9,636 nucleotides of DNA, taken from the IMG/VR virus record IMGVR_UViG_2529292736_000006; one strand, given 5' to 3'. The DNA is from a virus. Lineage: Duplodnaviria; Heunggongvirae; Uroviricota; Caudoviricetes. Each line of letters begins with the position of its first letter. Within the stretch, counting starts at the first letter, position 1. The notes below the pieces were generated by a model, which was not told the origin of the DNA, did not search any database, and saw nothing but the letters and a program-made list of their open reading frames with translations. This document shows positions 1 through 9,636 of the stretch, piece after piece. A program made the position numbers and the translations under genes.

Positions 1-1284
1 TTACTTCTTCGCCTCTGCAACCACTTTACTACCCACGCCGCGGTTATTGTATTCCCACATGCGGTTGTAGTTAGTGTCATTCAGATTGCGCTGTATTTCG
101 TCGTTATCATCTACGCTGCCGGTATTACCCGCAAACGGACGATTAGAGATCACCGCATCGGCCCACGGTTTAGCCGTGTTAAAACCTTCGTTGATGGCGC
201 TATCACGGATCACCACCTGACCGTTGGTATTGGCATCAACATCCAGCGAGCGGCCCAGTTGCGCCACACCATCACCGAAAGCATTGAAACGGCTGTTTAC
301 GGCGAGGAAACCGTAGTAAATGTTGGACAGCGTAGCCGGTGCAAACACATACGCTTCTTGCTGAGTACGTGAGTTCACCACGCGGAATTCGGTGTTATCG
401 AACACCACTGCGCCGCGACCAGAAACGATATCCACATCCCCTTCAATGTAGCTGTTGGTCACCAGCGTACGCGGCTGACGGTTGGTTTCCAGACGGTTCT
501 GCACACCGCTGTTGGTGACAAAGAAGGTGTTCTGACGACCGAGAATGTTAACGTTGTTAATCTGCACCAGGTCACCATCAGTACGCAGTGCCACCGCCGG
601 ATGGTTACCTGCATCTACGCTATCGCCCAGCGTGTTTTCGATGGTCAGATTTTGCAGTTGCAGGCCATTGTTTTGTGACCAGAAGACCGCAGAGCAGAGA
701 ACACCGATACTGTCGCTGCGTTTGCTCTGGCAGCTATCGTACATATACCACGCTGGTTTACCTGGCATATATTTGCCGCGCGGGTTGACGTCGTGACGCC
801 AGTCGGCAGGGCTCATGCCACCATCAAGGGAAAGCCCAATCTTCACATCAATCGGTTTTTCACCTGTACCGTACAGAGTAATTCCACCCGGAGCGGCAGG
901 GACATATACCGTTCCCTGATACTCACCAGGCATCACGGCAATATACTGGCGCTTGTTGGTACGCTTGATAATTGCCGCATCTACCGCCGCCTGAATCGTG
1001 GTATGCGTTACACCTTGAGTGCCCGCCGGGCCGACAACAAAGTCAGGTTGCGCAGGCAGGGTAATCGGGGAAGGATTCCACGCTGCAGCACCTGGTGTCA
1101 GGGATGCAAAATAGTGTTGAGCATCGAAATTCTGCGCTTCTTTTGCCGACAGAATCGGGCGAGAAGAGGTACCAGGCGCGGTTTGATCAGAAGGACGTTG
1201 ATCGGGCGGGGTTGAGCTACAGGCGGTCAGCGTCACGCCAAAAGCCAATGCCAGCGCCAGACGGGAAACTGAAAATGTGTTCAC
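1..1284 (-). CDS. ybhC: YbhC, pectinesterase-family outer-membrane lipoprotein (427 aa, host gene flanking attB-lambda)
   Basis: Full-length minus-strand ORF with GTG start at 1284 and TAA at 1-3. N-terminus MNTFSVSRLALALAFGVTLTACSS has a lipoprotein signal with lipobox LTAC. Recognised from memory as E. coli YbhC, which lies on the gal side of attB-lambda. Confidence 0.9.
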   Translation of the reverse strand: MNTFSVSRLALALAFGVTLTACSSTPPDQRPSDQTAPGTSSRPILSAKEAQNFDAQHYFASLTPGAAAWNPSPITLPAQPDFVVGPAGTQGVTHTTIQAAVDAAIIKRTNKRQYIAVMPGEYQGTVYVPAAPGGITLYGTGEKPIDVKIGLSLDGGMSPADWRHDVNPRGKYMPGKPAWYMYDSCQSKRSDSIGVLCSAVFWSQNNGLQLQNLTIENTLGDSVDAGNHPAVALRTDGDLVQINNVNILGRQNTFFVTNSGVQNRLETNRQPRTLVTNSYIEGDVDIVSGRGAVVFDNTEFRVVNSRTQQEAYVFAPATLSNIYYGFLAVNSRFNAFGDGVAQLGRSLDVDANTNGQVVIRDSAINEGFNTAKPWADAVISNRPFAGNTGSVDDNDEIQRNLNDTNYNRMWEYNNRGVGSKVVAEAKK

Positions 1285-1330
1285 AGGTTGCTCCGGGCTA
1301 TGAAATAGAAAAATGAATCCGTTGAAGCCT

Positions 1331-1345
1331 GCTTTTTTATACTAA
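1331..1345. other. attL: Prophage attachment site attL, 15-bp common core (GCTTTTTTATACTAA)
   Basis: Exact lambda att core sequence read at 1331-1345. Bacterial B-arm sequence (gttgaagcct) on the ybhC side and phage P' arm on the int side, which is the B-O-P' arrangement expected for attL. Confidence 0.9.
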
Positions 1346-1422
1346 GTTGGCATTATAAAAAAGCATTGCTTATCAATTTGTTGCAACGAACAGGTCACTA
1401 TCAGTCAAAATAAAATCATTAT
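1346..1422. promoter_or_regulatory. attL P' arm: IHF H' site and Int arm-type sites P'1-P'3
   Basis: TATCAATTTGTTG at 1371-1383 fits the IHF consensus WATCAANNNNTTR. Tandem arm-type repeats AGGTCACTAT / CAGTCAAAAT / AAAATCATTAT lie at about 1392-1421, matching what I recall of the lambda P' arm. The sites run into the int stop codon as in lambda. Confidence 0.75.
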
Positions 1423-2489
1423 TTGATTTCAATTTTGTCCCACTCCCTGCCTCTGTCATCACGATACTGTGATGCCATGGTGTCCGACTTATGCCCGAGA
1501 AGATGTTGAGCAAATTTATCGCTTATCTGCTTCTCATAGAGTCTTGCAGACAAACTGCGCAACTCGTGAAAGGTTGGCGGATCCCCTTCGAAGGAGAGAC
1601 CTGATGCTTTTCGTGCGCGCATAAAATACCTTGATACTGTGCCGGATGAAAGCGGTTCACGACGAGTAGATGCAATTATGGTTTCTCCGCCAAGAATCTT
1701 TTTGCATTTATCAAGTGTTTCCTTCATTGATATCCCGAGAGCATCAACATGCAATGTTGTTGGGATGGCAATTTTTACGCCTGTTTTGCTTTGCTCGACA
1801 TAAAGATATCCATCTACGATATCAGACCACTTCATTTCGCATAAATCACCAACTCGCTGCCCGGTAACAACAGCCAGTTCCATTGCAAGTCTAAGCCAAC
1901 ATGGTGATGATTCTGCTGCTTGATAAATTTTCAGGTATTCGTCAGCCGTAAGTCTTGATCTCCTTACCTCTGATTTTGCAGCGCGAGTGGCTGCGACCGG
2001 GTTTGTTGTTATATGGCCTTCAGCCATAGCCTCTCGGAATGCATCGCTCAGTGTTGATCTGATTAACTTGGCTGATGCCGCCTTTCCCTCGTCTATGTAT
2101 CCATTGAGCATTGCCGCAATTTCTTTTGTGGTGATGTCTTCAAGTGGAGCATCAGGCAGACCCCTCCTTATTGCTTTAATTTTGCTCATGTAATTTATGA
2201 GTGTCTTCTGCTTGATTCCTCTGCTGGCCAGGATTTTTTCGTAGCGATCAAGCCATGAATGTAACGTAACGGAATTATCACTGTTGATTCTCGCTGTCAG
2301 AGGCTTGTGTTTGTGTCCTGAAAATAACTCAATGTTGGCCTGTATAGCTTCAGTGATTGCGATTCGCCTGTCTCGGCCTAATCCAAACTCTTTACCCGTC
2401 CTTGGGTCCCTGTAGCAGTAATATCCATTGTTTCTTATATAAAGGTTAGGGGGTAAATCCCGGCGCTCATGACTTCGCCTTCTTCCCAT
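1419..2489 (-). CDS. int: Lambda integrase Int (tyrosine recombinase, 356 aa)
   Basis: 356-aa ORF whose translation (MGRRRSHERRDLPPNLYIRNNGYYCYRDPRTGKEFGLGRDRRIAITEA...DKIEIK) I recognise as lambda Int. The stop lies 81 bp from the att core centre, as in lambda, and the start overlaps xis. Confidence 0.97.
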   Translation of the reverse strand: MGRRRSHERRDLPPNLYIRNNGYYCYRDPRTGKEFGLGRDRRIAITEAIQANIELFSGHKHKPLTARINSDNSVTLHSWLDRYEKILASRGIKQKTLINYMSKIKAIRRGLPDAPLEDITTKEIAAMLNGYIDEGKAASAKLIRSTLSDAFREAMAEGHITTNPVAATRAAKSEVRRSRLTADEYLKIYQAAESSPCWLRLAMELAVVTGQRVGDLCEMKWSDIVDGYLYVEQSKTGVKIAIPTTLHVDALGISMKETLDKCKKILGGETIIASTRREPLSSGTVSRYFMRARKASGLSFEGDPPTFHELRSLSARLYEKQISDKFAQHLLGHKSDTMASQYRDDRGREWDKIEIK

Positions 2490-2685
2490 TTCTGATCCTC
2501 TTCAAAAGGCTACCTGTTATTGGTCGATTTAAGTCAACCTTTACCGCTGATTCGTGGAACAGATATTCTCTTCCATCCTTAACCGGAGGAGGGAATATCT
2601 TGCATTCGCGCACCCATCGACGAACTGTTTCAAGGCTTCTTGGGCGTCGCTGGCGAGCGTTCCACTCCTGAAGTGTCAAGTACAT
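2467..2685 (-). CDS. xis: Lambda excisionase Xis (72 aa)
   Basis: 72-aa ORF MYLTLQEWNARQRRPRSLETVRRWVRECKIFPPPVKDGREYLFHESAVKVDLNRPITGSLLKRIRNGKKAKS, recognised as lambda Xis. Its 3' end overlaps the int start by 23 nt as in lambda. Confidence 0.95.
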   Translation of the reverse strand: MYLTLQEWNARQRRPRSLETVRRWVRECKIFPPPVKDGREYLFHESAVKVDLNRPITGSLLKRIRNGKKAKS

Positions 2686-2711
2686 CGCAAAGTCTCCGCA
2701 ATTACACGCAA

Positions 2712-2732
2712 GAAAAAACCGCCATCAGGCGG
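2712..2732 (-). terminator. Candidate intrinsic terminator between the orf55-like gene and xis
   Basis: On the minus-strand transcript: 5-bp GC stem (GCCGG/CCGCC, plus-strand 2719-2723 and 2728-2732), 4-nt loop, then a U6 tract (plus-strand A6 at 2713-2718). The stem is short and it overlaps the orf55 stop codon. Confidence 0.45.
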
Positions 2733-2892
2733 CTTGGTGTTCTTTCAGTTCTTCAATTCGAATATTGGTTATGTCTGCATGTGCTATCTGCGCCCATATC
2801 ATCCAGTGGTCATAGCAGTCATTGATGTTCTCTGCTTCGATAACTCTGTTGAATGGTTCTCCATTCCATTCACCTGTGACTCGGAAGTGCAT
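2725..2892 (-). CDS. Small hypothetical protein (55 aa), same size and spacing from xis as the 55-codon ORF I recall downstream of xis in lambda
   Basis: ATG at 2892 to TGA at 2725-2727, found by manual translation (MHFRVTGEWNGEPFNRVIEAENINDCYDHWMIWAQIAHADITNIRIEELKEHQAA). It is absent from the supplied track because it is under the length cut-off. GGAG lies 5-8 nt upstream of the ATG and the gap to the xis start is 40 bp. Confidence 0.7.
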   Translation of the reverse strand: MHFRVTGEWNGEPFNRVIEAENINDCYDHWMIWAQIAHADITNIRIEELKEHQAA

Positions 2893-2902
2893 TTATCATC
2901 TC

Positions 2903-2930
2903 CATAAAACAAAACTCGCCGTAGCGAGTT
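2903..2930 (-). terminator. Candidate rho-independent terminator downstream of the 142-aa accessory gene
   Basis: On the minus-strand transcript: 7-bp stem (AACTCGC/GCGAGTT, plus-strand 2913-2919 and 2924-2930), 4-nt loop, then UUUUGUUUUAU. It sits 45 bp after the 142-aa ORF stop and just upstream of the orf55 ribosome-binding site. Confidence 0.5.
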
Positions 2931-2974
2931 CAGATATAATTTCCACCAAAGGCAGTAGTTGCTGATGCTAAGAA

Positions 2975-3403
2975 TTATTCAATATCTATTCCTGTAATAT
3001 CTTTTATCTTTTTCCTTGCAAAGCCTTTTGCTAGTGATTTTGAAACACTTATTAGTGTACTAATTCCCTCATCCTTAAAGTTTGTTTTTATAGTTTGCCA
3101 GACCTCCTTTTGACGCAAGTCAGCAATAAAATCATGCCCTCTTGCTGTCAACCTCAGTGGTACTTCGATCCAACTATATCCAACACCTTCCCCTAACTCG
3201 TTGGACATTATATGACCGAACCCAGGTTTTCCATCAACCCTGACTATTAATTCGTAGTCGCATAATAATCGCATATGGAAAATAAAATTTTGGTCATATC
3301 TATTAAAGCCATTATCCTCTAGTTCACTAAGCATCGTGTCAGGGCCATGAGTTTTTTCGAATGCGATAAGTAGATCTTTTAGATATTGCTGGTCTAATTT
3401 CAT
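2975..3403 (-). CDS. Hypothetical 142-aa protein, AT-rich accessory gene (moron); function unknown
   Basis: ORF with ATG at 3403 and TAA at 2975-2977, with a strong GGAGG ribosome-binding site 5 nt upstream. Composition is visibly AT-rich compared with the flanking lambda-like genes. I do not recall it in lambda at this position. A tentative resemblance to small phage DUF2513-type proteins (a ...LTARGHDFIADLRQKEVW... motif) is from memory only. Confidence 0.8.
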   Translation of the reverse strand: MKLDQQYLKDLLIAFEKTHGPDTMLSELEDNGFNRYDQNFIFHMRLLCDYELIVRVDGKPGFGHIMSNELGEGVGYSWIEVPLRLTARGHDFIADLRQKEVWQTIKTNFKDEGISTLISVSKSLAKGFARKKIKDITGIDIE

Positions 3404-3413
3404 TGCCGCCTCC

Positions 3414-3425
3414 GTGACATGTCAC
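3414..3425. promoter_or_regulatory. Perfect 12-bp palindrome GTGACATGTCAC (candidate operator or protein-binding site)
   Basis: Read directly at 3414-3425. It lies in the 28-bp gap between the Ea8.5-like stop and the 142-aa gene start codon, immediately upstream of its ribosome-binding site. A 5-bp stem with a 2-nt loop is too tight for a stable RNA hairpin, so a DNA-binding site is more likely. Confidence 0.3.
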
Positions 3426-3431
3426 AGAGAT

Positions 3432-3770
3432 TTATATCATTAATTTTGTTTCGTGCCAGCCTTTGGTCACCCAGCATTGTGAGTCACCATTACACGGGCA
3501 TGAATTAACAGGAACTCTCTCGCCGCACTTACCGCAACGTTTTCTGCTGATCGATTTTATACGCCAGCGCACACGTGCATCATCCTGGCGGCTCAGTAAC
3601 GCGATGTACTCACCAAACTCGTAAGGCGCATGCCTGAAGCGGCGCGTGGCTCAGTTACGATCCAGCATTTCAATTTCCTGAGCATCAAGTACAAGCTCCA
3701 GCTTACGCATACCGGATGATGCTTGCTTGGCTCTCTGATCGACTTTGCGCTCTGCTGATGATTTAGCCAT
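3432..3770 (-). pseudogene. Ea8.5-like ORF (N-terminal helical segment plus C-terminal Cys-rich zinc-ribbon-like segment) interrupted by an in-frame TGA
   Basis: A single minus-strand frame reads MAKSSAERKVDQRAKQASSGMRKLELVLDAQEIEMLDRN, then TGA at 3651-3653, then ATRRFRHAPYEFGEYIALLSRQDDARVRWRIKSISRKRCGKCGERVPVNSCPCNGDSQCWVTKGWHETKLMI and TAA at 3432-3434. Candidate starts are ATG 3770 and ATG 3710; the latter gives about 92 codons, close to the 93-aa lambda Ea8.5. Position relative to xis/orf55 and the two-part architecture suggest an Ea8.5 homologue. This is an inference, not a sequence identification. Confidence 0.45.
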
Positions 3771-3963
3771 TCTGCTTTTCCTGCATTAGGAGAAAGACAA
3801 TCATGGCGGCGCGGATACTTCCGGTATCTTTTTACTCGATATTACCCTTCAATGGCACATACAAGAAGAGAGCCATCAACAGGAGTGAGTGAGGAATCGA
3901 CAACCAGCAACGCTTAATTATCTATAGTGTCGTATTTGCTTCATAAAATATGGCGAATAACAC

Positions 3964-3998
3964 AAAGCCCGCAGCAGCTCATTGTGCGGGCTTTTCTT
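3964..3998. terminator. Strong hairpin terminator, possibly bidirectional, downstream of the 204-aa gene
   Basis: Perfect 10-bp stem AAAGCCCGCA / TGCGGGCTTT (3964-3973 and 3985-3994) with an 11-nt loop. The plus strand is followed by CTTTTCTTAT and the minus-strand reading by UUUGUGUUAUU. It lies about 65 bp downstream of the 204-aa ORF stop. Confidence 0.5.
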
Positions 3999-4063
3999 AT
4001 ACATACTTCCTAGAGATAATTCTATGGAGGCATTAAATTAATACTGTCATTGGTAATATCATA

Positions 4064-4678
4064 TTATCTAAAAGTCTTTCCACTTTTAACGTCTAGGTAT
4101 ATTCTGTTCGACAACGTCATTCCTCCGCAATATGTGAAATAGATGTTTTTCCCCTTATTGCTTGATGCCATCCACCCTCCGATTTCCTTAAAGTCGCTTT
4201 CCGTGCAGACCCCTTCGTTTATTAACTTCCTAGCTGCCGAAGAAAACTCTTTTTTGTATATACGGTAGTCATCAGATCCTTTGATTAAAGTATCATCTCC
4301 GCTCGCATTTTCAGCAGGATCTGATGGCCTTTCACTGCTAAGATCACTAAGTTTAACCCATTCTGAAAACTTGCCATTGACGATTCCGTTTTTTCTTGTG
4401 CAGGATTTATTACCTTCTTTAATATATTCGCTTTCCCCTCCCACACATGAGGCTGAATATGGCTCAGTTATACGAACCCATTCACCTTTTTTTTCTAGAA
4501 AATCTACGCCTTCCCTGAAAAATAGTTTCCCAGCCACTCCGCATTTACTTGAAGGGCAGGTATGTCTTTCCGTTCGATCAACAACAACCCAAAGTCTTGA
4601 TTCATTTTTTGCCATTGCCGATGGTATTTGAGATGAGACAATTAACGTAAGCCCTAAAATTAGTATTGATTTTTTCAT
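4064..4678 (-). CDS. Secreted or periplasmic Cys-rich hypothetical protein (204 aa), AT-rich accessory gene (moron); function unknown
   Basis: ORF with ATG at 4678 and TAA at 4064-4066; AAGGA ribosome-binding site 7 nt upstream. The N-terminus MKKSILILGLTLIVSSQIPSAMA-KNE looks like a Sec signal peptide with an AxA cleavage motif and no lipobox Cys. The mature part has 7 Cys and the gene is AT-rich. Confidence 0.85.
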   Translation of the reverse strand: MKKSILILGLTLIVSSQIPSAMAKNESRLWVVVDRTERHTCPSSKCGVAGKLFFREGVDFLEKKGEWVRITEPYSASCVGGESEYIKEGNKSCTRKNGIVNGKFSEWVKLSDLSSERPSDPAENASGDDTLIKGSDDYRIYKKEFSSAARKLINEGVCTESDFKEIGGWMASSNKGKNIYFTYCGGMTLSNRIYLDVKSGKTFR

Positions 4679-4763
4679 TGTAATTTCCTTTTACTTTTTA
4701 CAAAGCGTTTAATCATGGCTGATTATCTTTAAGCGTAGTAACAGCCTTGTGCGAAACATGTTA

Positions 4764-4768
4764 CCAAA
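4764..4768. repeat. IS2 target-site duplication CCAAA (left copy)
   Basis: CCAAA directly abuts the IS2 terminus at 4769 and is repeated at 6100-6104. Confidence 0.85.
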
Positions 4769-4779
4769 TGGATTTGCCC

Positions 4780-5685
4780 CTATATTTCCAGACACCTGTT
4801 ATCACTTAACCCATTACTGGCCTGCTGCCGCAGATATTCCCGTGGCGAGCGATAACCCAGTGCACTATGCGGATGCCATTCGTTATAATGCTCGAACGCC
4901 TCTGCAAGGTTCTTTGCTGCCGTTAACCCGTCTGGTTTAGGCATGATACTGATGTAGTCACGCTTTATCGTTTTCACGAAGCTCTCTGCTATGCCGTTAC
5001 TCTCCGGACTCCGCACCGCCGTGTTCTTCGGTTCAAGCCCCAACATCCGGGCAAACTGCCGTGTTTCATTAGCCCGGTAGCATGAACCATTATCCGTCAG
5101 CCACTCTACTGGAGACGCCGGAAGCTCGTTGCCGAAGCGGCGTTCCACCGCTCCCAGCATTACGTCCTGTACTGTTTCACTGTCGAAGCCGCCCGTAGTG
5201 ACTGCCCAGTGCAGTGCCTCACGGTCACAGCAGTCCAGCGCGAACGTGACTCGCAGTTTTTCTCCGTTATCACAGCGGAACTCGAACCCGTCAGAGCACC
5301 ATCGTTGATTGCTTTCTTTCACGGCCACTTTGCCAGTATGTGCCCGTTTCGATGGCGGTACAGCGGTTTTTCGCTCAAGCAACAGCGCATTCTGGCGCAT
5401 GATCCGGTAAACACGTTTGGCATTGATCGCAGGCATACCATCAAGTTCGGCCTGTCTGCGAAGCAGCGCCCATACCCGACGATAACCATACGTGGGCAGC
5501 TCTCCGATAACATGGTGTATACGGAGAAGCACATCCGTATCATCTGAGTGACGGCTGCGGCGACCATCTTTCCAGTCATCGGTTCGTCTGAGAATTACGT
5601 GCAACTGCGCACGCGACACCCGGAGACAACGGCTGACTAAGCTTACTCCCCATCCCCGGGCAATAAGGGCGCGTGCGCTATCCAC
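4780..5685 (-). CDS. insD: IS2 transposase OrfB (InsD, DDE integrase-like domain; normally expressed as an OrfAB fusion)
   Basis: 301-aa ORF ([34 protein letters not shown]...NRCLEI) recognised as IS2 InsD. It overlaps orfA in the -1 frame. Confidence 0.9.
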
Positions 5686-6008
5686 TTTTTTGCACGCCCG
5701 TATTCAACGGCTTCTTTAAGGAGTTCATTTTCCATCGTTTTTTTGCCGAGCAGGCGCTGGAGTTCTTTAATCTGCTTCATGGCAGCAGCAAGTTCAGAGG
5801 CAGGAACGACCTGCTCTCCTGCGGCCACAGCAGTAAGACTTCCCTCCTGGTATTGCTTGCGCCAGAGAAATAACTGGCTGGCTGCCACACCGTGTTGCCG
5901 GGCAACAAGGGAGACCGTCATTCCCGGTTCAAAACTCTGCTGAACAATAGCGATCTTTTCCTGTGTAGTACGCCGTCTGCGTTTCTCCGGTCCTAAGACA
6001 TCAATCAT
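5643..6008 (-). CDS. insC: IS2 OrfA (InsC, helix-turn-helix regulator, 121 aa)
   Basis: [56 protein letters not shown]... with ATG at 6008. The track's 136-aa version starts at an upstream in-frame ATG inside the inverted repeat and is probably not used. Confidence 0.9.
5685..5691 (-). other. IS2 A6G slippery motif for programmed -1 frameshifting (OrfA to OrfAB)
   Basis: AAAAAAG on the minus strand (plus-strand CTTTTTT at 5685-5691) in the orfA/orfB overlap, where IS3-family elements frameshift. Confidence 0.6.
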
Positions 6009-6099
6009 CTGCTCTCCAATGACTAGTCTAAAAACTAGTATTAAGACTATCACTTATTTAAGTGATATTGGTTGTCTGGAGATTCAGGGGGCCAGTCTA

Positions 6100-6104
6100 C
6101 CAAA
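6100..6104. repeat. IS2 target-site duplication CCAAA (right copy)
   Basis: Identical 5-mer directly abutting the other IS2 terminus. Confidence 0.85.
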
Positions 6105-6312
6105 TCGCCATTTCAGTGTATCCGCAGTTAGGCTGCCACTTCAAGGATTCCTAATTACATGGTACGTAAGCGTAAAATCCCGTTGGTTGTCGGGTAATAA
6201 CTCTGATCAAATCTCCCTTGTCTTTTGCTCTTACGTATGCAGCTCTTGTGTATTCAACCCAGGCCTCCAGTTCAGCAATACGCTTACTTCCATCCGAGAT
6301 AACACCTTCTAC
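6100..6312 (-). other. Protein-like in-frame continuation of the Ea22-like ORF beyond its TGA (disrupted C-terminal part)
   Basis: Same frame as the 83-aa ORF. After TGA (6313-6315) it reads VEGVISDGSKRIAELEAWVEYTRAAYVRAKDKGDLIRVITRQPTGFYAYVPCN, then TAG (6151-6153), then ESLKWQPNCGYTEMAIW up to the IS2 junction. No ATG or GTG start occurs in this stretch and the other two frames are closed. Confidence 0.45.
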
Positions 6313-6564
6313 TCACGCTGCTCGTTGAGTTTTGATTTTTGCTGTCTCCAGCTCAACACGCAGTTTCCTCACCGTTAGCGCAATATCCTCGTTCTCCTGG
6401 TCGCGGCGTTTGATGTACTGCTGGTTTCTTTCCCGTTCATCCAGCAGTGTCAGCACAATCGATGGTGTTACCAGCTCATGGAAAAGGTCCGCGTCAAATC
6501 CCCAGTTGTCATGCATTGCCTGCTCTGCCGCTTCACGCAGTGCCTGAGAGTGAATTACGCTCAC
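6313..6564 (-). CDS. Ea22-like N-terminal segment (83 aa as a conventional ORF; coiled-coil-like)
   Basis: ORF MSVIHSQALREAAEQAMHDNWGFDADLFHELVTPSIVLTLLDERERNQQYIKRRDQENEDIALTVRKLRVELETAKIKTQRAA. Its start overlaps the upstream TraR-like gene stop by 4 nt (ATGA). Its position relative to exo, orf60a and orf63 matches where I recall lambda ea22 starting. Confidence 0.6.
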   Translation of the reverse strand: MSVIHSQALREAAEQAMHDNWGFDADLFHELVTPSIVLTLLDERERNQQYIKRRDQENEDIALTVRKLRVELETAKIKTQRAA

Positions 6565-6782
6565 TTCGAACCTCTCTGTTTACTGATAAGTTCCAGATCC
6601 TCCTGGCAACTTGCACAAGTCCGACAACCCTGAACGGCCAGGCGTCTTCGTTCATCTATCGGATCGCCACACTCACAACAATGAGTGGCAGATATAGCCT
6701 GGTGGTTCAGGCGGCGCATTTTTATTGCTGTGTTGCGCTGTAATTCTTCAATTTCTGATGCTGAATCAATGATGTCTGCCAT
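6561..6782 (-). CDS. TraR/DksA-family C4 zinc-finger protein (73 aa)
   Basis: MADIIDSASEIEELQRNTAIKMRRLNHQAISATHCCECGDPIDERRRLAVQGCRTCASCQEDLELISKQRGSK. A CxxC...(17)...CxxC motif with a preceding helical segment is typical of phage and plasmid TraR-like proteins. Confidence 0.8.
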   Translation of the reverse strand: MADIIDSASEIEELQRNTAIKMRRLNHQAISATHCCECGDPIDERRRLAVQGCRTCASCQEDLELISKQRGSK

Positions 6783-6830
6783 CTTTCATTAATCCCTGAA
6801 TTGTTGGTTAATACGCTTGAGGGTGAATGC

Positions 6831-6858
6831 GAATAATAAAAAAGGAGCCTGTAGCTCC
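6831..6858 (-). terminator. Weak candidate intrinsic terminator after the 93-aa ORF
   Basis: On the minus-strand transcript: 5-bp stem GGAGC/GCTCC (plus-strand 6844-6848 and 6854-6858), 5-nt loop, then UUUUUUAUUAUU. The stem is short. Confidence 0.3.
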
Positions 6859-6880
6859 CTGATGATTTTGCTTTTCATGT

Positions 6881-7162
6881 TCACCGTTCCTTAAAAACGC
6901 CGTTTAACATGCCGATTGCTAGGCTTAAATGAGTCGGTGTGAATCCCATCAGCGTTACCGTTTCGCGGTGCTTCTTCAGTACGCTACGGCAAATGTCATC
7001 GACGTTTTTATCCGGAAACTGCTGTCTGGCTTTTTTGATTTCAGAATTAGCCTGACGGGCAATGCTGCGAAGGGCGTTTTCCTGCTGAGGTGTCACTGAA
7101 CAAGCCCCATGTCGGCAAGCATAAGCACACAGAATATGAAGCCCGCTGCCAGAAAAATGCAT
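6881..7162 (-). CDS. Hypothetical 93-aa protein in the orf61 / ea22-orf63 interval
   Basis: ORF MHFSGSGLHILCAYACRHGACSVTPQQENALRSIARQANSEIKKARQQFPDKNVDDICRSVLKKHRETVTLMGFTPTHLSLAIGMLNGVFKER. It is the only long frame here. Its relationship to lambda orf61 could not be settled from memory. Confidence 0.55.
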   Translation of the reverse strand: MHFSGSGLHILCAYACRHGACSVTPQQENALRSIARQANSEIKKARQQFPDKNVDDICRSVLKKHRETVTLMGFTPTHLSLAIGMLNGVFKER

Positions 7163-7172
7163 TCAGTGGTTG

Positions 7173-7364
7173 TCATACCTGGTCTCTCTCATCTGCTTCT
7201 GCTTTCGCCACCATCATTTCCAGTTTTTGTGAAAGGGATGTGGCTAACGTATGAAATTCTTCGTCTGTTTCTACTGGTATTGGCACAAACCTGATTCCAA
7301 TTTGAGCAAGGCTATGTGCCATCTCGATACTCGTTCTTAACTCAACAGGAGATGCTTTGTGCAT
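7173..7364 (-). CDS. orf63: Lambda orf63-like protein (63 aa)
   Basis: [63 protein letters not shown]. Sequence and position (overlapping orf60a and lying upstream of exo) match my recollection of lambda orf63. Confidence 0.8.
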   Translation of the reverse strand: MHKASPVELRTSIEMAHSLAQIGIRFVPIPVETDEEFHTLATSLSQKLEMMVAKAEADERDQV

Positions 7365-7519
7365 ACAGCCCCTCGTTTATTATTTATCTCCTCAGCCAGC
7401 CGCTGTGCTTTCAGTGGATTTCGGATAACAGAAAGGCCGGGAAATACCCAGCCTCGCTTTGTAACGGAGTAGACGAAAGTGATTGCGCCTACCCGGATAT
7501 TATCGTGAGGATGCGTCAT
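7337..7519 (-). CDS. orf60a: Lambda orf60a-like protein (60 aa)
   Basis: [60 protein letters not shown]. The ATG at 7519 overlaps the exo stop as ATGA, suggesting translational coupling. The track's 62-aa version uses an ATG two codons upstream. Confidence 0.8.
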
Positions 7520-8196
7520 CGCCATTGCTCCCCAAATACAAAACCAATTTCAGCCAGTGCCTCGTCCATTTTTTCGATGAACTCCGGCACCATCTCGTCA
7601 AAACTCGCCATGTACTTTTCATCCCGCTCAACCACGACATAATGCAGTCCTTCACGCTTCATACGCGGGTCATAGTTGGCAAAGTACCAGGCATCTTTAC
7701 GTGTCACCCACATGCTGTACTGCACCTGGGCCATGTAAGCCGACTTTATGGCCTCGAAACCACCGAGCCGGAACTTCATGAAATCCCGGGAGGTAAACGG
7801 GCATTTCAGCTCAAGGCCATTGCCGTCACTGCATAAACCATCGGGAGAGCAGGCGGTGCGCATACTTTCGTCGCGATAGATGATCGGGGATTCAGTAACA
7901 TTCACGCCGGAAGTGAATTCAAACAGGGTTCTGGCGTCGTTCTCGTACTGTTTTCCCCAGGCCAGCGCCTTAGCATTAACTTCCGGAGCCACACCGGTGC
8001 AAACCTCAGCCAGCAGGGTGTGGAAGTAGGACATTTTCATGTCAGGCCACTTCTTTCCTGAGCGGGGCTTTGCTATCACGTTGTGAACTTCTGAAGCGGT
8101 GATGACGCCGAGCCGTAATTTGTGCCATGCATCATCCCCCTGTTCGACAGCTCTCACGTCGATCCCGGTACGCTGCAGGATAATGTCCGGTGTCAT
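7516..8196 (-). CDS. exo: Lambda exonuclease (Red alpha, 226 aa)
   Basis: 226-aa [65 protein letters not shown]...GFVFGEQWR, recognised as lambda Exo. The start overlaps the bet stop by 4 nt. Confidence 0.97.
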
Positions 8197-8978
8197 GCTG
8201 CCACCTTCTGCTCAGTGGCTTTCTGTTTCAGGAATCCGAGAGCTTTCACTGCTTCGACCTGTGTCAGTTCTGACGATGCGCGAATGTCGCGGCGAAATAT
8301 CTGGGAACAGAGCGGCAATAAGTCGTCATCCCATGTTTTATCCAGGGCAATCAGCAGAGTGTTAATCTCCTGCATGGTTTCATCGTTAACCGGAGTGATG
8401 TCGCGTTCCGGCTGACGTTCTGCAGTGTATGCGGTATTTTCGACAATGCGCTCGGCTTCATCCTTGTCATAGATACCAGCAAATCCGAAGGCCAGACGGG
8501 CACACTGAATCATGGCTTTATGACGTAACATCCGTTTGGGATGCGACTGCCACGGCCCCGTGATTTCTCTGCCTTCGCGGGTTTTGAATGGTTCGCGGCG
8601 GCATTCATCCATCCACTCGGTAACGCAGATCGGATGATTACGGTCCTTGCGGTAAATCCGGCATGTGCAGGATTCATTGTCCTGCTCAAAGTCCATGCCA
8701 TCAAACTGCTGGTTTTCATTGATGATACGGGACCAGCCATCAACGCCCACCACCGGAACGATGCCGTTCTGCTTGTCAGGGAAGGCGTAAATTTCTTTCG
8801 TCCACGGATTAAGGCCGTACTGGTTGGCGACGATCAACAATGCGATGAACTGCGCATCGCTGGCATCGCCTTTAAATGCCGTCTGGCGAAGAGTGGTGAT
8901 CAGTTCCTGTGGGTCGACAGAATCCATGCCGACACGTTCAGCCAGCTTCCCAGCCAGCGTTGCGAGTGCTGTACTCAT
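8193..8978 (-). CDS. bet: Lambda Beta recombinase (Red beta, single-strand annealing protein, 261 aa)
   Basis: 261-aa [69 protein letters not shown]..., recognised as lambda Bet. Confidence 0.97.
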
Positions 8979-8983
8979 CCGTT

Positions 8984-9280
8984 TTATACCTCTGAATCAA
9001 TATCAACCTGATGGTGAGCAATGGTTTCAACCATGTACCGGATGTGTTCTGCCATGCGCTCCTGAAACTCAACATCGTCATCAAACGCACGGGTAATGGC
9101 TTTTTTGCTGGCCCCGTGGCGTTGCAAATGATCGATGCATAGCGATTCAAACAGGTGCTGGGGCAGGCCTTTTTCCATGTCGTCTGCCAGTTCTGCCTCT
9201 TTCTCTTCACGGGCGATCTGCTGGTAGTGACGCGCCCAGCTCTGAGCCTCAAGACGATCCTGAATGTAATAAGCGTTCAT
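8984..9280 (-). CDS. gam: Gam (RecBCD inhibitor), N-terminally truncated to the 98-aa GamS-equivalent by an IS insertion
   Basis: From ATG at 9280 the frame reads [60 protein letters not shown]...VDIDSEV, which matches lambda Gam from Met-41 onward. Sequence upstream of 9280 is not lambda-like and belongs to the IS21-family end. The track's 131-aa ORF (GTG start at 9379) is a read-in fusion with IS sequence. Confidence 0.85.
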
Positions 9281-9636
9281 TGTCAGCGCCAATGATATAA
9301 GACAGTAATTCACCATTTGGATTGTCCGCTCCACCCAACATGTTGTTTCCTTAAGGTTCCTACACCACAAAGGGAACACTCATGCTGAGCAGAGAGGATT
9401 TTTACATGATAAAGCAAATGCGCCAGCAAGGTGCGTATATTGTTGATATTGCCACTCAGGTTGGTTGCTCTGAGCGGACCGTCAGACGGTACCTGAAATA
9501 CCCGGAACCTCCGGCCAGAAAAACACGCCACAAAATGGCCAAACTCAAGCCGTTCATGGACTATATAGATATGCGTCTGGCTGAGAACGTCTGGAACGGC
9601 GAGGTCATCCTGGCGGAAATCAAAGCGATGGGTTAT
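9281..9636 (+). mobile_element. IS21-family insertion sequence, left end (partial; continues beyond the window)
   Basis: Lambda gam homology stops abruptly at 9280/9281. The new sequence begins TGTCAGCGCC... with internally repeated TGTC/GACA motifs, and istA starts about 100 bp in, as is typical for IS21-family left ends. Confidence 0.8.
9382..9636 (+). CDS. istA: IS21-family transposase IstA, N-terminal 85 codons (helix-turn-helix region); truncated by the window end
   Basis: MLSREDFYMIKQMRQQGAYIVDIATQVGCSERTVRRYLKYPEPPARKTRHKMAKLKPFMDYIDMRLAENVWNGEVILAEIKAMGY; open to the last base of the window. Recognised as the IstA N-terminus of IS21-like elements. Confidence 0.85.
   Translation, partial: MLSREDFYMIKQMRQQGAYIVDIATQVGCSERTVRRYLKYPEPPARKTRHKMAKLKPFMDYIDMRLAENVWNGEVILAEIKAMGY

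Follow-up and report, generated by a model that had tools for sequence, protein, structure and literature searches.

Insertion sequences (IS) lying in the early operons of lambda or in gal are polar without N and are read through when N is present; as Adhya, Gottesman and de Crombrugghe reportedly described in 1974, N-modified RNA polymerase overrides polar IS insertions. Among the genes served by such an operon is gam, for which two product forms have been described. The name GamS denotes residues 41-138 of lambda Gam, a form that by itself binds and inhibits RecBCD (PMC5218532), while GamL, which carries a 40-aa extension, is active in vivo (PMC5218532). As for the IS21 family, site selection by the IstB protein has been described as structure-based, and kink-prone or promoter-adjacent DNA has been proposed to constitute IS21 hot spots (PMC11208146). 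That work was done in vitro on a different member of the IS21 family, whose insertion site is 5 bp long. No hot spot at gam is known to have been reported.

The stretch analysed here (IMG/VR record IMGVR_UViG_2529292736_000006; 9,636 nucleotides, hereafter the window) can be compared with each of these systems. Its Gam resembles that of lambda in length (98 aa), in sequence, in covering the full Pfam Gam profile and in being encoded at the same place upstream of bet-exo. It differs in that an IS cuts the gene off from its native SD and from the 40 GamL codons, and in that the DNA upstream now belongs to the IS, which offers an in-frame open extension. As with polar insertions in the lambda early operons and gal, an IS stands between an N-antiterminated promoter and distal genes, but here a gene is also parted from its ribosome-binding site, so that the effect on Gam would be translational and would not be relieved by N. 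The element, ISEc62, shows nothing different in itself; only its location is particular. The likeness to IstB shape-based selection (PMC11208146) lies in a recurrent 4-bp target without sequence consensus, as a selector of shape or flexibility would give.

Both the IS and the gene are known and annotated as such in RefSeq, and the lesion is an ordinary insertion of a well-known kind. The best overall explanation, which can be held with good confidence, is that ISEc62 inserted at the start of gam, that ATGA was duplicated and the SD lost, that bet and exo would be reached by pL read-through, and that the site was likely struck twice.

The left junction and the ISEc62 element

According to the ORF list, the window begins with ybhC (1-1284, minus strand), followed by the left arm of a lambda-type prophage in the order int, xis, several small genes, exo, bet and gam. 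The relevant features are:

7516-8196, minus strand: exo, lambda exonuclease, third and last of the red-region genes affected downstream of the insertion (ORF; annotation in the E. coli AST85 locus L001 and the ATCC 8739 locus L006)
8193-8978, minus strand: bet, RecT-like annealing protein, directly downstream of gam in the same operon (ORF; annotated bet in L001 and L006)
8984-9280, minus strand: gam of GamS length, 98 aa plus stop, ATG at 9280-9278 (Pfam, lambda alignment, PGAP)
9277-9280, no strand: gam-side copy of the target-site duplication TCAT, on the gam strand ATGA, that is, the start codon and the first base of codon 2 (TCAT at both IS ends in contig L283 and in AST85)
9281-9636, plus strand: left part of ISEc62 (IS21 family), 356 bp out of a full length of 2125 bp, with the inverted repeat starting TGTCAGCGCCAA; the window ends within the IS (identity to RefSeq ISEc62)
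9314-9332, minus strand: IS-encoded in-frame ATG (9316-9314) with GGAG (9332-9329) 12 nt upstream, giving a 110-aa Gam with a 12-residue extension (ORF list; pairing energy)
9382-9636, plus strand: start of istA (transposase; 85 codons), which is directed away from gam (sequence; istA annotated correspondingly in L001)
Beyond the window: right IS end ...GGCGTTGACA, then TCATGGCTGAACTCCTGAAATAGC on the kil side (expected from a simple insertion)
Junction strings: left, AAGCGTTCAT / TGTCAGCGCC; right, GGCGTTGACA / TCATGGCTGAAC

Lambda-like DNA stops at 9280, which on the minus strand is the first base (A) of the GamS ATG. Alignments to 195 phage records cover 8193-9280 and end at 9280 in every alignment listed; of the 69 E. 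coli genomes matching 1-9280, the complete ones among those listed likewise end there. From about 9278-9281 onward, the window aligns with ISEc62 copies (99-100% identity to RefSeq-annotated ISEc62), and the IS begins at 9281 with TGTCAG, reading TGTCAGCGCCAATGATATAAG.... The bases shared at 9278-9280 are a chance extension, because 65 distinct left flanks of the element abut TGTCAG without a consensus, and the ISEc62 matches listed had been ranked by such chance extension into the flank. The trinucleotide CAT, present in alignments that start at 9278-9279, was considered as part of the IS or as a favoured target, and was rejected as the 65 flanks show no CAT preference.

The element is called ISEc62 after the product label given by RefSeq/PGAP, 'IS21-like element ISEc62 family transposase'. 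The complete element is found in three loci (L283, L001 and L020), and the loci with the same junction have 2125 bp, TG...CA ends, a 4-bp duplication and genes for IstA and the AAA+ protein IstB. The 85 istA codons of the window are identical to those of L283. In AST85, the full IstA carries HTH_23/HTH_7, rve and Mu-transpos_C_2 domains, i.e., it is a DDE transposase with an N-terminal HTH, and the adjacent istB, which lies outside the window and is present in L283 also, matches PF01695 IstB_IS21 (E=9.7e-88). The terminal repeats, TG...CA, match at 11 of their first 12 bases (IRL TGTCAGCGCCAA against IRR TGTCAACGCCAA). Duplications of 4 bp were read at the six ISEc62 sites with both flanks readable: TCAT here, and AGCA, CAAG, TTGC, AAAT and CTGC elsewhere. 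Every IS21-family feature that was tested (istA, istB, inverted repeats and the 4-bp duplication) is present in the element. The original prediction of an IS21-family element in gam, with everything upstream of the ATG being IS, therefore stands, with TGTCAG at 9281 and istA on the opposite strand from 9382. Elsewhere, a draft genome of Escherichia sp. MOD1-EC7003 (NZ_PTRE01, L008-L031) displays an expansion of ISEc62: 22 different contig ends abut the left end of the IS, and coverage of the 2125-bp IS contig is about 27 times that of chromosomal contigs.

On the phage side of the junction, the 98-aa ORF covers the Pfam Gam profile PF06064 from 1 to 98 of 98 positions (E=3.4e-65, 216.8 bits). 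It is identical to residues 41-138 of lambda Gam at 96 of the 98 positions, L22I and S61A being the only differences, and this identity, taken with the published activity of GamS (PMC5218532), suggests that the Gam of the window would inhibit RecBCD. The bet and exo ORFs are intact. The frame of gam stays open for 33 further codons into the IS (ORF 8984-9379). The claim that the insertion leaves exactly a GamS-equivalent ORF is thus correct for the phage-derived part (8984-9280) and fails for the open frame, which is longer by these 33 IS codons.

The right-hand side of the insertion

Exact-junction searches with AAGCGTTCATTGTCAGCGCCAATG and with a 21-mer returned no match in genome, metagenome or viral contig collections, and no public record was found for the 131-aa GTG-started ORF. 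Look-up of the 98-aa Gam returned uninterrupted prophages only and was uninformative, because this protein is extremely common. As the gam frame is open into the IS, the 110-aa product starting at the ATG at 9316 was used as the query, and a single public contig was found to carry this IS-extended ORF (L283; GCA_000250375.2, AIHI01000004.1). This contig is 100.000% identical to the window over 1-4769 and 6098-9636 and lacks the IS2 of the window; its source genome is, therefore, a close relative and not the same record.

The window's IS2 is complete (1331 bp, 4769-6099, with orfA/orfB on the minus strand) and is flanked by the target-site duplication CCAAA at 4764-4768 and 6100-6104. Its absence from an otherwise 100% identical contig marks it as a very recent insertion. 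An IS1 lies within about 35 bp of the same place in ATCC 8739. More generally, IS elements are collecting in these prophages: the window has its IS2, L283 an IS3-family element near ninB, and the related remnant of ATCC 8739 copies of IS1.

In L283, the IS is complete (2125 bp), with an IS21-type right end ...CTTGGCGTTGACA and TCAT on both sides. Past it, the sequence TCATGGCTGAACTCCTGAAATAGCTGTG... is a lambda-type gam upstream region, with a lambda-type SD and the N-terminal codons of GamL, followed in order by kil, cIII, ea10, ral, sieB, N, cI, cro, cII, O and P. The window's own right junction, lying beyond its end at 9636, is inferred from this contig. In silico removal of the IS and of one TCAT restores ...TTTCAGGAGTTCAGCC ATG AAC GCT... 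in an open 138-aa GamL frame (MDINAETEIK...); the rebuilt empty site is lambda-like (...CAGGAGTTCAGCC ATG AAC...), with the break at Met-41. The event is a simple transposition, neither a deletion nor a rearrangement.

The breakpoint was thus rightly placed at the codon 40/41 boundary, where GamS starts, and the predicted removal of the Gam N-terminus is confirmed, the 40 GamL codons of the rebuilt allele now lying 2125 bp away. Two checks had been proposed with the prediction: retrieval of the other IS end with its target duplication, for which L283 gives the IS21-type right end and the TCAT repeat, and alignment to lambda gam, in which the 96/98 match to residues 41-138 starts at the break. 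A junction made by IS-mediated deletion or rearrangement, after which kil, cIII and N would no longer lie upstream, is very improbable and already largely refuted. Such a reading could draw on the fact that the window stops inside the IS, leaving its own right end unseen, and on the nearest complete-genome relative, ATCC 8739, being a truncated remnant that lacks the immunity region. It is opposed by L283 itself, which combines complete identity over the shared window sequence with a full IS, a matching duplication and a colinear lambda-type left operon, and by AST85, in which the same junction likewise results from a simple insertion.

Translation and transcription of gam-bet-exo

In the best explanation, a full ISEc62, encoding the IstA transposase and its AAA+ helper IstB, entered gam where its translation starts, the recipient being a lambda-type prophage that resides at attLambda next to ybhC. 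The staggered cut fell across ATGA (the GamS start codon and one base), and repair duplicated these 4 bp; because the GamS ATG lies inside the duplication, it is kept on the 98-codon frame. The SD AGGAG, the 40 GamL-only codons and the whole pL-N-cIII-kil segment have been moved 2125 bp upstream. Behind the native AGGAG, the kil-side ATGA copy opens an ORF of 14 codons (MMSTPRLLAVFRHF, then stop) into the right end of the IS, and the 40 GamL-only codons terminate at the same stop. The displaced SD would now head this short junk ORF.

Predicted anti-SD pairing with the 16S 3' end amounts to -6.9 kcal/mol at the native site, -1.5 at the GamS ATG of the junction and -6.0 at the IS-internal ATG. 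With essentially no ribosome-binding site left at the GamS ATG, Gam synthesis should drop sharply, and at most a weakly initiated, 110-aa IS-extended Gam would be made. From the sequence, Gam translation is probably crippled, although low-level translation from an ATG without an SD can still take place. Gene callers differ on the product, one public annotation giving 110 aa (L283) and PGAP giving 98 aa (AST85). The 12-residue IS extension would probably be tolerated, considering that GamL is active despite its 40-aa extension.

For Gam expression, the loss of the SD, which the original prediction overlooked, weighs more than the missing N-terminus, since GamS is active alone (PMC5218532) and about half of the sampled gam phage contigs have no GamL frame. 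Two gam upstream variants exist, each abundant in phage contigs. Lambda-form contigs (CACAGCTATTTCAGGAG) have a GamL ATG at -40 in 102 of 120 sampled, whereas in 119 of 120 sampled contigs with CACAGCCATTTTCAGGAG the frame meets a stop 16-26 codons upstream and has no start codon, so that gam can only be 98 aa long and about half of gam-bearing lambdoid phages cannot make long Gam. The difference lies at positions -17 to -21 from the gam ATG, where CAGCCATTTTCAGGAG is one base longer than the lambda CAGCTATTTCAGGAG (IMG/VR loci L032-L271). Gam family representatives are overwhelmingly 97-99 aa long; judging from these sequences, the conserved functional unit is GamS, and the GamL extension is lineage-specific.

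The window lineage had the GamL frame before the insertion, as shown by the empty site rebuilt from L283. The closed '+1' variant had been considered for this lineage on the basis of ATCC 8739 and AST85, which would have meant that no N-terminus was lost, and was overturned by the lambda-type, open frame of L283. Among complete genomes, the prophage arm of the window has its closest relative in ATCC 8739 (L006, at attLambda; 99.3-99.8% identity), where the prophage is reduced to int...exo-bet-gam-kil-cIII, IS1, gene fragments and ybhB, with neither immunity nor replication region. Since the gam upstream region of ATCC 8739 is of the '+1' variant and that of the window lineage is not, the start of gam coincides with a mosaic boundary.

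Transcription of the module has also to be considered. The istA and istB genes are antisense to pL transcription. Consensus scans of the IS end revealed no outward promoter toward gam above chance. On the minus strand, one weak sigma-70-like site (9587-9560, 9/12) was found in 737 bp, against 0.8 expected by shuffling, in a scan that cannot prove absence; this -35/-10 match may be a promoter. Between this site and gam lies a small terminator-like hairpin (9539-9527). Over the whole IS in AST85, no strong outward element was found except the TTGACA at the right end, and this one is directed away from gam. This perfect TTGACA (L001 14417-14444, plus strand) forms, together with GAAAAT in the AST85 flank, a 10/12 match directed antisense into kil; the corresponding flank of L283 offers a far poorer -10.

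It could be supposed that the left end of the IS serves as a mobile promoter, from which a GamS-only gene, bet and exo would be expressed without pL and N, as a form of Red domestication. The exact conservation of the gam ORF, the intact bet and exo, the 9/12 match and the IS-internal GGAG-ATG, which could start the 110-aa Gam, would all suit this idea. It is nevertheless improbable: the count of promoter-like sites is at chance level, the hairpin intervenes before gam, the only strong outward TTGACA faces the other way, and the GamS ATG lacks its SD. The first three of these points leave IS-driven expression unsupported.

The favoured alternative to an IS-borne promoter is read-through from pL. 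The upstream operon appears complete in L283, with a 90-aa arginine-rich N preceded by a boxA-like GCTCTTTAA and a boxB-like GGCTGAAAAGCC hairpin. The bet and exo genes keep their own start signals and would be transcribable only by pL read-through across the IS, which N antitermination should permit on induction. By analogy with the polar insertions described above, bet and exo probably depend on N-antiterminated read-through from pL, and Gam would be limited at the translational level. The original prediction that the insertion separates gam-bet-exo from pL and N-dependent transcription holds insofar as the IS adds 2.1 kb, but is too strong, as N-modified polymerase is expected to read through.

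Recurrence of the insertion and target choice

E. coli AST85 (L001) carries the same left junction, TCAT duplication and orientation in a different setting: an argU-site prophage whose kil is of the KilR type and whose immunity region differs, while attLambda is empty in this strain. The window lineage and AST85 are the only two lineages with this junction in all collections searched. To the left of the IS, their flanks begin to differ at 52 bp (window position 9229, then 9176 and 9011), to the right from 17-21 bp onward (the +1 variant), and both rebuilt empty sites have exact uninterrupted counterparts over -120..+300 (L178 for the window lineage, L146 for AST85). The IS copies of L283 and AST85 differ at 6 of 2125 positions, five of which are pre-existing ISEc62 haplotype markers: the haplotype of L283 is that of L020 and L299, and that of AST85 is shared with L294, L305 and L313, all at unrelated sites. 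Because both the flanks and the IS haplotype differ, two independent strikes on one site are favoured; judged by these sequence differences, the AST85 insertion is most likely a second, independent event at a local hot spot.

The two alleles might instead descend from a single ancestral insertion, with gam::ISEc62 moved afterwards between lambdoid prophages by homologous recombination. This possibility appears rather unlikely. Junction, orientation and duplication are identical in both alleles, and as ISEc62 has no target consensus, an exact double strike by chance is very unlikely a priori. Recombination around gam-bet-exo is moreover frequent, as prophages at attLambda, icd and argU share this module at 98% identity or more, and either of two kil types precedes it. 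Descent from one insertion would, however, require crossovers within 51 bp to the left and 16-20 bp to the right of the IS, where only about 75 bp of homology are available before the kil types diverge, as well as conversion of five haplotype-defining sites within the IS; in addition, each flank exactly matches an extant uninterrupted haplotype. An identical 98-aa Gam is also found in prophages at icd, attLambda and argU-type sites (L273-L282), with Lambda_Kil or KilR upstream and several immunity types, which indicates that the gam-bet-exo module is freely exchanged.

Selection has been weighed as another cause of the recurrence: insertions that silence Gam translation and spare bet and exo would be favoured in lysogens, as leaky Gam inhibits RecBCD. 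Gam expression does sensitise cells to DNA damage (PMC5218532), and gam has been parted from its SD in two alleles that appear independent. Such a purpose would nevertheless be served by a disruption anywhere in gam, not only at the same nucleotide in the same orientation, and the other IS21-family insertions, inside gam (L003) and in kil (L002), have no common outcome; selection is accordingly a most doubtful cause. The IS21-family element in these two E. coli genomes is not ISEc62, to which it is about 86% identical: the L002 insertion (~6569-8699) lies in the first codons of kil, with the target-site duplication ATGT, and the L003 insertion (~6220-8350) inside gam, with CTTT. A regional enrichment of IS21-family insertions around gam is not claimed, as the three found among 5426 genomes are not clearly above a rough random expectation.

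A hot spot at the exact target is a narrower proposal. Among the 65 distinct ISEc62 left flanks, drawn from genomic, viral and metagenomic contigs, information content is at most 0.12 bit per position, and no target consensus, CA/TG-step enrichment or GC bias in the duplicated 4 bp was found across them; the only trend is that a central CG step, absent from the gam site, is mildly overrepresented. With two independent transpositions, two IS and two phage haplotypes and the same 4-bp target, the balance tips somewhat toward the gam translation-start region of lambdoid phages being a natural, orientation-specific hot spot for ISEc62. Such a hot spot would fit the structure-based target choice, by DNA deformability, described for IstB. 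A 5-bp inverted repeat, GTTCA-GCCA-TGAAC, spans the target; it falls under repeat-finder thresholds, and no significance is claimed for it.

For the prophage, which is also gathering other IS elements, the lesion would most simply be neutral or mildly inactivating. The lysogen is probably unable to make normal amounts of Gam, and its Red genes stand behind a 2.1-kb IS, a position that bears on the ability of the prophage to recombine or to protect linear DNA. For annotation, the locus illustrates that a target-site duplication can preserve a seemingly intact gene stripped of its ribosome-binding site, on which gene callers then disagree (98 aa against 110 aa). The sole wider interest lies in the likely double strike on one 4-bp target, which would be an in vivo example of structure-based site choice by an IS21 IstB. 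If the hot spot is true, it would offer a ready natural substrate for defining what IstB-type, shape-based selection recognises.
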